Shown here one piece after another: positions 30,468-33,435 of a stretch of 64,000 nt of DNA. The notes under the pieces are model-generated. The model was given only the letters and a program-made list of their open reading frames with translations, was not told the origin of the DNA and did no database searches. A program made the translations under genes and the position numbers. The DNA is from Nitrososphaeria archaeon (GTDB lineage: Archaea; Thermoproteota; Nitrososphaeria; Geothermarchaeales; JDFR-13), in assembly GCA_027078545.1 (NCBI GenBank), contig JALWXN010000004.1, forward strand, positions 640,001-704,000. The letters run 5' to 3'. The first letter of the stretch is position 1. The number at the start of each line of letters is the position of its first letter.

Positions 30468-31826
30468 ATGAAGCGTCTCTATATTCTAGGCGCCCCCTGG
30501 TGTAGCCAGTGCCAGGAATTCTACTCGGGGCTCAGGGAGGAGCTTGGAGGAGAGGCTGTGGAGTACGTCGACCTAGACAGGTATCCACATCTACAGGAGA
30601 GGTTCGACGTGAGGGCATACCCTACACTAGTCCTTGTGGATGGTGGTAGGCCCCTAGCTACACATGTACCCGAGGATCTCGGCGATGCTAAGAGGTTCTA
30701 TAGGGCGGGGGGTGGCGAGAACTTTATGAGGCGATGTGTCTATCGACGGGTGGGCCCACCCAGCAGGGATGAGCTGAACATGGTGATCAGCTTTATAGAG
30801 AATGTCTATGACTGGGTGGAGGGTGGGCTGACCGGTGGATACAAGCTTGTCCCCTATAGGGAGATGGAGTTCCTGGTGAAGGCCTACCTAGACCTTGGGG
30901 TTAGGGGCTACCTAGAGATGGTTAGGCGGACCATAGACATCGTCCTCCAGAGCGGGATGATGGATTATAAGAGGTACCTAGTCTCCCACATGAGCCTCTC
31001 ACCAGACTGGGAGAGTCCTGACAAGACGTATCTCCTTGAGGAGCAGGCCAGGATGATCCGCCTCCTCATATGGCTTGGTAGGCTTACCGATGCCGAGGTA
31101 TATCTAGAGATTGCCAGGCGTATGGTCGACTCGGTATTCAGCCTCTTCCTAGACAGGGGTGTGAGGGCATATCTAGGATCGGAGCCTATACACATGGGGA
31201 GTGGTGGGATACACCCATATATAGAGGCGTTGGAGAGCCTCTCCGATATGGGGCTCGACCCTAGGCTGAGGCCTAGGATGCAGAGCCTGATCCCCCTAGT
31301 CCCAAGCCATGATAAGATACTGGGGGAGTACCCACTCATCACACAGGCCTACTACCTACACACTATTCTGAACATATACCGCTACACCCGTTGGAGGGAG
31401 GGGCTCAGGAGGGCTAGAGACCTGGTCAATAGGTGGGCCGGGTGGATACATAGCCTGCCAACCGTGGATACTGAGCGGAGCCTCCACCTACACCTCGATA
31501 AATGGGTCTGCCGACCCCCTAGGACCAACATCGTCTATGGCCTAGCCATGTATAGGGCCCGGATCTACGGATTGACGGGGGATGAGGCTCTGGGCGGGAT
31601 ACTCAGTAATAGGTGGGACGTGACTAGGAGGAATACGTATGACGCCGCGACGTGGGGGATCGGGGTAGCCACCCATCTATATGGCCTAGACCTGTTCAGG
31701 GTCTCAGGCTATAAGGCCCTCCCCTCCAAGGTTGGTGATCTGGTGAAGCCCTTCACCGAGATAGTCTATACCGATGGGGAGAGGAGGGTAGAATACGTCT
31801 CACGGGGGGTAAGCTTCGAGATATGA
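30468..31826 (+). CDS. Thioredoxin-fold (WCxxC) protein with YyaL/six-hairpin-like helical domain
   Basis: APWCSQC and YPT, then YDWVEGG...K...KTYLLEEQA resembling YyaL/SPATA20. Confidence 0.65.
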   Translation: MKRLYILGAPWCSQCQEFYSGLREELGGEAVEYVDLDRYPHLQERFDVRAYPTLVLVDGGRPLATHVPEDLGDAKRFYRAGGGENFMRRCVYRRVGPPSRDELNMVISFIENVYDWVEGGLTGGYKLVPYREMEFLVKAYLDLGVRGYLEMVRRTIDIVLQSGMMDYKRYLVSHMSLSPDWESPDKTYLLEEQARMIRLLIWLGRLTDAEVYLEIARRMVDSVFSLFLDRGVRAYLGSEPIHMGSGGIHPYIEALESLSDMGLDPRLRPRMQSLIPLVPSHDKILGEYPLITQAYYLHTILNIYRYTRWREGLRRARDLVNRWAGWIHSLPTVDTERSLHLHLDKWVCRPPRTNIVYGLAMYRARIYGLTGDEALGGILSNRWDVTRRNTYDAATWGIGVATHLYGLDLFRVSGYKALPSKVGDLVKPFTEIVYTDGERRVEYVSRGVSFEI

Positions 31827-31884
31827 ATTGGTATAAACGGTTTATTCCCGGGGTTATAACCAGTCGGATTAGTATCATCTATAT

Positions 31885-33435
31885 ATGTCCTCGGAGGAGA
31901 GGGCAGAGATACTAGAGGTTCTTAGGAGCGCGACGGAGGCAACGGTATCTACTTATGGAGGGGAGGTTATACGTAGCAGGGCTATGCACTACGCGGTTGC
32001 CGACGATTTCACGATCTACCTAGCAAGTATGAAGGGTGACCCTAAGATCCTCCACATATCCAATATTCCGAGCGTTACCCTACTCATCCTCCACAAGGCT
32101 ACACCGCCGGAGACCTATATGGATCTCAGGGAGTTTGGGAAGTGGAGTGAGATCGAGATCCATGGGAGGGCCTCGATAGTCAGGGATGAGCGTGAGAGGG
32201 AGTATGCCATCAAGATGTTGGCTGAGAGGAGCCCGATAGTCAAGCTCCTCTACCAGAATAACCAGACAGGCGTGTTGGAGGTTATCAGGGTGGAGCCACA
32301 GATAATCAAGTATAAACGTGTCCGCGACATACTGGAGGGTAAGCCCCCCATAGTCATATCCTTCGAGGAGGCTGGGGAGCGTGGGGGGGACATAACCATC
32401 CTGGCTAGGAAGCTTAAGAACCTATACTATGCTATGCGCGTCCCCTTCATAGCGGCAACCATTCCATCGATAGTCCTCGGCGGGCTATTGGCGCTGTATC
32501 ATAGGAGTGTCTTCGACCCAATACTGTTCATACTGACGTTGATAGGTACTGTGGCGGCCCATCTAGGGCTTAACCTGATGAACGACTACTACGACTATAG
32601 GATGGGTGTCGACCAGGTGAATAAGGAGGGGGTATTCCCCTTCACCGGTGGGAGTAGAGTGCTCCAGATGGGTCTATTGTCACCCTTAGAAGTGTTCTTC
32701 ACATCAATATTCATGATCTCTCTAAGCGTCGCCATAGCCGTGTATCTAGCCCTCGTGGTGACGCCCCTGGTACTAGCTGTCGCAGCCCTCGGCTTCGCAA
32801 TAATACTTGCCTACCACGTCCCACCACTGAGGCTGGTCGATAGGGGGCTTGGCGAGCTATTGGTTGGCCTCGGCTTCGGGCCGGTGTATACACTCGGTAC
32901 ATACCTTGTGATGACTGGTGAGCTCTCGGTGATACCTGTCCTGGCATCACTCCCACTAGCCCTCCTAGTGGCTGATATACTTGTGGTCAACGAGTTCCCC
33001 GACTATAAGGGTGATCTCGAGGCTGGTAAGCATAACCTAGTGGTTAGGCTTGGGAGGAGGCGTGCCAGGTGGCTATCACACATACTCCACTTCACCGCCT
33101 ACCTCCTCATACCCGTCCTCTACCTCATCGGGATATACCCATTCGAGTCGTTGATAGCGCTGCTAGGACTACCACTATCCATCTATGGTAAGGCCAACCT
33201 TCATAGGAACTATGAGTCGCCCTTCGACATGATACCAGCCATCGTCTCCAACATAGTGGTATACGTGGTTACAGGCTTCCTGATATCCGTCGGCATACTA
33301 TTCTCAGTCAGCCCCAGCCCAGCCCTACTAGCATCGATACTAGCGGGAATAGCGGGCTTCACCCTCTACGAGCTGGTGGAGCTGAGGCGTGGGGTCAGGG
33401 CCTTCAACCTCCTGAGACGCACGGTCTCCTCCTAG
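31885..33435 (+). CDS. menA: Fusion: pyridoxamine-5'-phosphate-oxidase-like split-barrel domain + MenA/UbiA prenyltransferase
   Basis: aa ~1-160 ATVST...SRAMHY...IYLAS...K...PSVTL...IEIHGRA; aa ~175-516 NLMNDYYDYRMGVD, TGGS, GLGE and NEFPDYKGDLEAGKHNL. Confidence 0.85.
   Translation: MSSEERAEILEVLRSATEATVSTYGGEVIRSRAMHYAVADDFTIYLASMKGDPKILHISNIPSVTLLILHKATPPETYMDLREFGKWSEIEIHGRASIVRDEREREYAIKMLAERSPIVKLLYQNNQTGVLEVIRVEPQIIKYKRVRDILEGKPPIVISFEEAGERGGDITILARKLKNLYYAMRVPFIAATIPSIVLGGLLALYHRSVFDPILFILTLIGTVAAHLGLNLMNDYYDYRMGVDQVNKEGVFPFTGGSRVLQMGLLSPLEVFFTSIFMISLSVAIAVYLALVVTPLVLAVAALGFAIILAYHVPPLRLVDRGLGELLVGLGFGPVYTLGTYLVMTGELSVIPVLASLPLALLVADILVVNEFPDYKGDLEAGKHNLVVRLGRRRARWLSHILHFTAYLLIPVLYLIGIYPFESLIALLGLPLSIYGKANLHRNYESPFDMIPAIVSNIVVYVVTGFLISVGILFSVSPSPALLASILAGIAGFTLYELVELRRGVRAFNLLRRTVSS

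Follow-up and report, generated by a model that had tools for sequence, protein, structure and literature searches.

Most prokaryotes cannot respire without menaquinone-type quinones, and to our knowledge only two routes to the menaquinone ring are known, the classical (men) and the futalosine (mqn) pathways. Aromatic prenylation by enzymes of the UbiA type requires an electron-rich ring, the hydroquinone being the only form that can be alkylated. UBIAD1 is inactive on menadione unless a reductant is supplied (PMC4398444), and in vitamin K1 synthesis NdbB/NDC1 reduces demethylphylloquinone before MenG acts, beside the MenA step (PMC5299476). In addition, split barrels of the Ddn type are able to reduce quinones (PMC3567243). 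Here we describe a gene of a hot-spring Nitrososphaeria archaeon, located in a 64,000-nucleotide stretch of contig JALWXN010000004.1 (GenBank assembly GCA_027078545.1, positions 640,001 to 704,000; hereafter, the window), whose product is a MenA/UBIAD1-clade enzyme with a built-in split-barrel module. Because UBIAD1 needs a reductant, the vitamin K1 route has a reductase step and Ddn-type split barrels reduce quinones, our best, if tentative, account of this protein is that it is a self-contained quinone reductase and prenyltransferase that captures oxidized naphthoquinone head groups.

The gene (P0001) is a single open reading frame (ORF) of 516 amino acids (aa) at 31885..33435 on the forward strand, with an ATG start and zero internal stops in the ORF listing of the window. 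A first-pass annotation, made from the DNA letters alone, had described it as a split barrel joined to a MenA/UBIAD1-type domain with both Asp-rich motifs, and the ORF listing, Pfam and our alignment of homologs all bear this description out. The annotation had left it to a domain-architecture search to establish whether the fusion recurs, and it does so widely: a protein search returned 441 relatives, and more than 100 of these, from archaea and bacteria, are 500-540 aa long with the identical architecture. The join is genuine and no assembly artifact, as this two-domain protein is present in more than 100 independent assemblies and in 6 of the 13 other genomes of the archaeon's own family. 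A scan of species genomes found 54 fused loci, with hosts among the Nitrososphaerota, Thermoplasmata and other archaea, Chloroflexota, Gemmatimonadota, Bacteroidota (Hanamia, Ginsengibacter, Proteiniphilum and Saprospiraceae) and Bacillota (the cultured carriers being three Paenibacillus and two Alkalicoccus); most carriers come from soil, sediment or groundwater. An orthologue of 97% identity is present in a Ca. Geothermarchaeota metagenome-assembled genome (MAG; locus L009), and another, of 47% identity, lies on a 1.68-Mb metagenome contig. The distribution is nevertheless patchy, since the fusion was found in none of 200 high-quality genomes sampled across the phylum, yet in nearly half of the archaeon's own family. 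Literature searches for a split-barrel::MenA fusion found no report; the fusion is real, widespread and unstudied.

AlphaFold2 models of the protein are confident (full-length pLDDT 89.6, pTM 0.83; N-domain alone, pLDDT 93.4), with a minimum in the linker (pLDDT about 66 at aa 161-170), and a fold search found no solved structure that covers both domains together. The features of the gene, in window coordinates, are as follows.

31885..33435, forward strand: split-barrel::MenA/UBIAD1-like prenyltransferase fusion, the whole of ORF P0001 (ORF listing, Pfam)
31885..32370, forward strand: PNPOx/GSP26-like split barrel, N-terminal, aa 1-162 (Pfam PF01243, PDB profile search, Foldseek)
31972..31989, forward strand: R30-S-R32-A-M-H35 segment, with R32 and H35 invariant and R30/R32 in the predicted dimer interface (alignment, dimer model)
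32017..32046, forward strand: Y45-LASMKG-D52-P53-K54 segment, with Y45, D52, P53 and K54 invariant (alignment, hidden Markov model (HMM) alignments)
32371..32439, forward strand: linker and amphipathic pre-membrane helix, aa 163-185 (AlphaFold2 model)
32440..33432, forward strand: membrane domain of the UbiA superfamily, MenA/UBIAD1 clade, predicted to have about 9-10 transmembrane helices (Pfam PF01040, model helices, hydropathy)
32581..32613, forward strand: first Asp-rich motif, NDYYDYRMGVD, aa 233-243, with N233, D234, D237 and D243 invariant (alignment)
32620..32673, forward strand: clade-specific cap-loop signature N246...FPFTGGSRVLQMG, aa 246-263 (alignment)
32989..33015, forward strand: second Asp-rich motif, NEFPDYKGD, aa 369-377, with N369, D373 and D377 invariant (alignment)
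31854..31859, forward strand: TTATAA, a TATA-box-like hexamer 26-31 nucleotides 5' of the ATG (read from the sequence), which would suit a promoter of the gene's own and an mRNA whose leader is short or missing

Homology shows the C-terminal domain to be a prenyltransferase of the MenA/UBIAD1 clade, expected to join a polyprenyl chain to a head group of the naphthoquinol type. It belongs to the UbiA superfamily (PF01040, aa 197-439; E 1.9e-35; 122.8 bits against a cut-off of 34.2), and both Asp-rich motifs are kept in all 102 aligned homologs, which together with the helices of the model gives the two-motif arrangement of UbiA enzymes. The closest solved homolog is UBIAD1 (8djk; E 2.8e-17 by sequence; TM-score 0.76 and 24% identity by fold), and the fold also matches DGGGPS, ApUbiA and AfUbiA. 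This closeness, with the independence from ring-synthesis pathways described below, places the domain with enzymes of the UBIAD1 type. The cap loop is 8 residues longer than that of UBIAD1 and holds six invariant residues (N246, G255, G256, S257, Q261 and G263); its signature was the search pattern that found the fused and unfused members of the clade. The best NCBIfam models are all MenA-like (PRK05951, PRK06080 variants, cyanobacterial/plant MenA and TIGR00751), and the protein scores under the cut-off of each (TIGR00751, 89.6 bits against 102.15; the NF004749-54 models, 56-116 bits against 264-555), which leaves it outside the MenA equivalogs. MqnP models (NF041585/NF041586) are absent among its 22 NCBIfam matches, and it is accordingly not classed as MqnP either. 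On a tree of the C-domain, canonical MenA falls outside a clade made up of the fused proteins and their unfused sisters.

The N-terminal domain is, again by homology, a cytoplasmic split barrel of the flavin-binding GSP26/PNPOx type. PNPOx_N (PF01243) matches aa 7-141, scoring 31.4 bits when the whole protein is searched and 34.7 bits when the domain is taken by itself, above the gathering cut-off of 28.1, and profile searches against the PDB return GSP26 (3ec6, E 1e-8) and Lin2891 (3db0, E 5e-7). Foldseek matches 2i02, 3db0 and 6m0a at probability 1.0, with a target-normalized TM-score (TMt) of up to 0.84, so that Pfam score and fold agree on membership of the PNPOx-like split barrels. The Pfam matches are the general PNPOx_N and Pyridox_ox_2 models only, and the N-domain is without an NCBIfam match to PdxH, which sets it apart from true pyridoxamine-5'-phosphate oxidases. 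Across 102 aligned sequences, 13 N-domain residues are invariant (R32, H35, Y45, D52, P53, K54, E89, E91, S116, V119, P138, G152 and P155), identity to the window protein is 37-78%, and conservation is at least as high as that of the membrane domain; both domains are under selection across two domains of life. The segment from Y45 to K54 aligns in HMM alignments with the Y..S/T.....K segment of GSP26 and Lin2891, and R32, Y45, S48 and K54 align with positions conserved in those two proteins. In this fold, R32 would occupy the strand position of the Arg that binds the FMN (flavin mononucleotide) phosphate in PNPOx-type proteins.

A homodimer of the N-domain is also predicted. With two N-domain copies and FMN as input, the protein pair, which the score covers with the ligand left unscored, reached an ipSAE of 0.94 against 0.09 for the best control, with contacts 100% the same across runs and a partner pLDDT of 94. 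Of 30 benchmark proteins that were solved as pairs, 20 attained the same mark, against 1 of 23 that were solved as single chains. R32, E89 and E91, all invariant, lie in the predicted interface, as does R30, which is conserved at 90% or more. Split-barrel dimers are common among solved structures in the PDB, and because of this the result may reflect the model's memory of such structures, that is, likeness rather than binding. No free copy of the N-domain split barrel was found in the archaeon's own genome, which fits a homodimer of the fused domain. With regard to the cofactor, the first-pass annotation had allowed for an F420-type N-domain, and this part of it has to be corrected for the family at large. 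The F420-FDOR model TIGR03618 gives 14.7 bits against a cut-off of 79.05, far from what an F420-dependent FDOR/Ddn protein would score, and CofE was not found in four bacterial carriers (two Paenibacillus, one Alkalicoccus and one Hanamia). F420 is therefore unlikely as the general cofactor of the fusion family; the archaeon's own genome has a CofE-like gene below cut-off only. FMN or FAD (flavin adenine dinucleotide) is the most likely cofactor, judging from the matches to flavin-type proteins.

A second line of evidence is the relation of the fusion to the two pathways. MqnA/D is present in 17 of the 55 fused carriers and MenB above cut-off in 3, whereas about 35 are without either; this last group includes every archaeal and Chloroflexota carrier examined. 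In the unfused sister clade (hosts being Asgard and other archaea, Deltaproteobacteria-labeled MAGs, Aerophobetes, KSB1 and others), MqnA/D and MenB above cut-off were each found in 0 of 26 genomes. The same is true of the archaeon's own family (0 of 14 for each), one genome of a single contig included, and MqnA/D is present in other families of the same class (6 genomes). The missing routes are thus not only a matter of MAG incompleteness. The expectation that carriers would lack men and mqn genes holds, then, for most of them, and the remark that no other men genes lie in the window is true of the entire 1.24-Mb genome: whole-genome searches found no MenB above cut-off and no MenD, MqnA/D, MqnC, MqnP or UbiD.

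Where a de novo pathway does exist, it has a prenyltransferase of its own. MenA models find the fusion as their best or sole match in five cultured Bacillota, in which MenB is absent and MqnA and MqnD are present; in each, an MqnP-like gene (320-353 bits) directly adjoins mqnA/D, and UbiD is encoded elsewhere in the genome. MqnP and UbiD form the predicted late futalosine set (PMC4746308), and the fusion was therefore rejected as prenyltransferase of the futalosine pathway. In the three MenB-positive carriers, canonical MenA lies directly beside menB and the fusion elsewhere in the genome; canonical MenA scores 230-262 bits in two complete matches (G032 and G053) and 135.6 bits in G049, where it is cut by the contig end. 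Because of the MqnP-like gene beside mqnA/D in the five Bacillota and canonical MenA beside menB in the three carriers, we regard the fusion as an extra enzyme and not as the pathway MenA. Neither the archaeon's own genome, nor its family, nor the MenB carriers are a case in which the genome makes 1,4-dihydroxy-2-naphthoate (DHNA) and the fusion is its prenyltransferase. The salvage or maturation role put forward in the first-pass annotation fits these observations, as the pathways keep their own prenyltransferase; with F420 unlikely as the general cofactor and the link to N2O reduction, as described below, limited to a shared quinone pool, the annotation's interpretation is supported in part. 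A same-family relative of a genus without the fusion has a MenB-like gene (G290:C83:1545-2354) of 308 bits against a cut-off of 342.7; quinone head-group supply may for this reason differ among genera of the family.

Gene neighborhoods tie the clade to isoprenoid-quinone synthesis, since a single operon at locus L020 holds the fused gene and, after it, a polyprenyl synthetase and UbiE, and the unfused sisters adjoin a polyprenyl synthetase at nine loci and also lie near UbiE and geranylgeranyl reductase. In addition, stand-alone PNPOx genes adjoin unfused clade members in L072, L077 and L080 and, more weakly, in L071. That the modules are fused in some lineages and adjacent in others argues that the two work together. 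In L071:7117-8909 and L072:7062-8882, from the 'Archaeon HR01' genome and a Nitrososphaeria MAG, a PNPOx-like gene of 157-162 aa overlaps or abuts the start of a MenA-like gene of 440-443 aa. These MenA-like proteins carry a 150-aa N-terminal extension and are the closest C-domain relatives of the window protein on the tree; comparing the L072 extension with the N-domain profile gave no hhalign match, and a degenerate split barrel was not confirmed. In loci of the Asgard type (L064, L070, L077 and L080), the unfused MenA-like gene lies in a conserved cluster with polyprenyl synthetase, geranylgeranyl reductase, a 580-aa FAD-linked oxidase (FAD_binding_4 and FAD-oxidase_C) and a CCG/4Fe-4S protein, which could be an isoprenoid-quinone or ether-lipid module.

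On this basis, we postulate that the N-domain dimerizes, binds FMN or FAD and would reduce an oxidized head group, with menadione, 1,4-naphthoquinone and oxidized DHNA as candidates, to the hydroquinone. The prenyltransferase site, which would lie on the same membrane face, would then receive the hydroquinone directly. Such an enzyme would act outside men and mqn and serve to capture, salvage or re-prenylate free head groups. In the archaeon, just two recognizable steps would lead towards a respiratory quinone, which its terminal oxidases and NosZ would need, namely the fusion and a second MenA-like paralogue that is unfused. Heme-copper oxidase genes are present in 42 of 54 fused carriers and 10 of 26 unfused sister genomes (Fisher p = 0.001); as the genomes are related to one another, the association of the fusion with oxygen is a tendency only, and it is consistent with a need arising under oxygen.

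Several observations weigh against a combined reductase and prenyltransferase. The two invariant acidic residues at the predicted interface, E89 and E91, are atypical as flavin ligands, and heme-binding split barrels (At3g03890, HugZ and MSMEG_6519) are among the top Foldseek matches of the N-domain (TM 0.68-0.72). The fused forms are not one clade on the C-domain tree, where the window protein sits on a long branch. All five cultured carriers have a de novo pathway, and the carriers with neither route are MAGs of unknown completeness, except for two closed Chloroflexia chromosomes and the archaeon's own 92%-complete genome. The fusion comes with neither an NAD(P)H-binding module nor a conserved transporter or donor gene, and most copies stand alone. 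Finally, it is not evident that a free-living aerobic thermophile could depend on naphthoquinone that it salvages, and for this reason a de novo route of an undescribed kind stays in play.

Of such a route, it is tempting to speculate that the split barrel carries out the redox step on a pathway-specific intermediate just before prenylation, either a reduction or an aromatizing oxidation like those of PNPOx and PhzG, with upstream enzymes that are not of the known types. We consider this third route to the head group unlikely, though the distribution favors it: the clade is concentrated in genomes free of men and mqn (about 35 of 55 fused, 26 of 26 sister and 14 of 14 family genomes), and these include respirers with heme-copper oxidases. 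Nevertheless, conserved neighbors that could supply the upstream steps are lacking, the fusion also occurs in genomes with complete Mqn or Men pathways and their own prenyltransferases, and many of the genomes with neither route are incomplete MAGs. That the fusion, with its unfused and two-gene relatives, is the signature step of a third naphthoquinone route, used by the many archaea and bacteria with neither known pathway, in which an obligatory redox step of the flavin domain on the head group is channeled into prenylation, is conceivable but likewise unlikely.

A rather improbable alternative is that the protein is an ordinary DHNA polyprenyltransferase (MenA) whose N-domain only dimerizes, stabilizes or regulates, without redox chemistry. 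Automatic annotation labels the relatives MenA, the fused proteins of Bacillota reach 98-114 bits on TIGR00751, close to a cut-off of 102, a dimer is predicted for the N-domain, and the L020 operon of polyprenyl synthetase and UbiE is of the late menaquinone type. The window protein, however, lies at 89.6 bits under the 102.15 of that model and under every other MenA equivalog cut-off, the men operon of the MenB-positive carriers has its own canonical MenA apart from the fusion, and most carriers cannot make DHNA. In addition, the invariant polar residues R32, H35, Y45, K54, E89, E91 and S116 resemble a ligand site and not a scaffold.

It is very unlikely that the N-domain is instead a heme-binding split barrel of the HugZ, At3g03890 or MSMEG_6519 type that senses heme or redox state or delivers a tetrapyrrole to the prenyltransferase. 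His35 is invariant and the fold matches noted above include such proteins, but the profile matches favor flavin-type GSP26 and Lin2891, the sole heme protein among them being the marginal 6m09 (E 0.47). The C-domain, moreover, falls in the MenA/UBIAD1 clade and not with CtaB, and the genome already has two heme O synthases, which also leaves prenylation of heme by the fusion unsupported. Prenylation of flavin, in the manner of UbiX, is likewise unsupported, the genome being without UbiD. Least probable of all is a detoxifying role, in which toxic, redox-cycling environmental naphthoquinones would be reduced, prenylated and so moved into the membrane pool: the N-domain does fall within the 'general stress protein 26' branch, some fused genes have MsrA and OsmC genes as neighbors and carriers are mostly oxygen-respiring organisms of soil, sediment or groundwater, but stress-gene neighbors occur at two or three loci only, and the mechanism overlaps that of our best explanation and differs in purpose only.

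The archaeon's genome (1.24 Mb in 11 contigs, 92% complete) has five UbiA-family genes, namely the two heme O synthases, a DGGGP-synthase-like gene, the fusion and the second MenA-like paralogue. Polyprenyl synthases and geranylgeranyl reductases are present; a UbiE/MenG methyltransferase was not detected in the genome (best HMM score, 16.6 bits), and for this reason a naphthoquinone, if made, may keep its demethyl form unless an unrelated enzyme methylates it. The second MenA-like paralogue (G000:C4:458570-459667; L005:1366-2463; L121:6570-7667) lies elsewhere on the contig, outside the window, encodes 365 aa, is unfused and very divergent, and is conserved in the genus (87% and 56% identity); other family members have MenA-like genes of about 300 aa instead. 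Its neighbors, an ABC-2 transporter, OsmC, a crotonase-family gene and an alcohol dehydrogenase, are not a quinone cluster. Three contigs of 1.0-1.4 kb each (C8, C10 and C11) have 35-41% G+C against 52% in the main contigs and may be mis-binned.

In the window, the neighbors of the fusion are a saccharopine dehydrogenase-like gene, a 452-aa ORF, an M48 peptidase, an ACD-type CoA ligase and a diphthamide-synthase-like gene. A function based on an operon was considered and set aside for the window gene, as these neighbors are housekeeping genes only and the archaeal orthologue loci L118-L120 likewise carry none but housekeeping genes. Across 54 fused loci, no conserved partner gene was found, the sole recurrent cluster being a generic ATP-binding cassette (ABC) ATPase several kb away. 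The 452-aa ORF (30468-31826, forward strand) ends 59 bp 5' of the fusion, has a short thioredoxin-like match at aa 9-63 only, and keeps its position in the orthologous locus L120 (67% identity), where it is without a Pfam match. The NosZ gene (nos_propeller and cupredoxin) lies at about 41.2-47.4 kb of the window, about 8 kb downstream, and is syntenic in L120 (L120:17457 onwards). The first-pass annotation had proposed a functional tie between the fusion and this N2O reductase; given the housekeeping neighborhood, and synteny in close kin only, what connects the two is only a shared need for a quinone pool.

The clade of fused and unfused proteins is found mainly in organisms with neither known route to the ring, including oxygen- and N2O-respiring archaea, Chloroflexota and Asgard archaea. 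If the N-domain is indeed a built-in quinone reductase, this would explain how such organisms acquire their quinone, the head groups probably being supplied by cross-feeding within the community, and the protein would be a self-sufficient enzyme that makes prenylquinones from oxidized precursors. It would also correct the widespread automatic MenA label on proteins that are not the pathway MenA. As the gene is present in cultured Paenibacillus and Alkalicoccus, the question is open to genetics.

Of the described systems, UBIAD1, the animal prenyltransferase that converts menadione to MK-4 (menaquinone-4; 8djk), is among the closest. It has both Asp-rich motifs in common with the fusion and, as proposed for the fusion, does not depend on a de novo ring pathway but works on a free quinone in need of prior reduction (PMC4398444). 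UBIAD1, however, is without a split barrel and uses other reductants, whereas the archaeal protein adds an 8-residue stretch to the cap loop (FPFTGGSR) and an extra C-terminal helix. Bacterial MenA (TIGR00751; NF004749-54) belongs to the same UbiA subclade and shares the link to polyprenyl synthetase and UbiE, but canonical MenA is a single domain of about 300 aa in men operons, while the fusion coexists with MenA or occurs where DHNA cannot be made. The GSP26/PNPOx-like proteins (PF01243; 3ec6, 3db0 and 2i02) resemble the N-domain in fold, size, predicted dimer and the R...Y..S.....K pattern. They are free-standing, soluble and mostly of unknown function, whereas the N-domain is tethered to a membrane prenyltransferase and has an invariant set of its own (H35, D52-P53, E89, E91 and S116).

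NdbB/NDC1 and Ddn are precedents for dedicated quinone reduction in vitamin-K-type metabolism, and Ddn shares the split-barrel fold (PMC5299476, PMC3567243). NdbB/NDC1, in contrast, are type II NAD(P)H dehydrogenases of an unrelated fold, Ddn uses F420, which several fusion carriers cannot make, and neither is fused to a prenyltransferase. The two-gene version in L071 and L072 pairs the same two modules, and its hosts are archaea that have oxidases but neither men nor mqn. Its split barrel is a gene of its own and its prenyltransferase has the 150-aa extension, whereas in the window one canonical split barrel is fused to the prenyltransferase and has no free partner in the genome.

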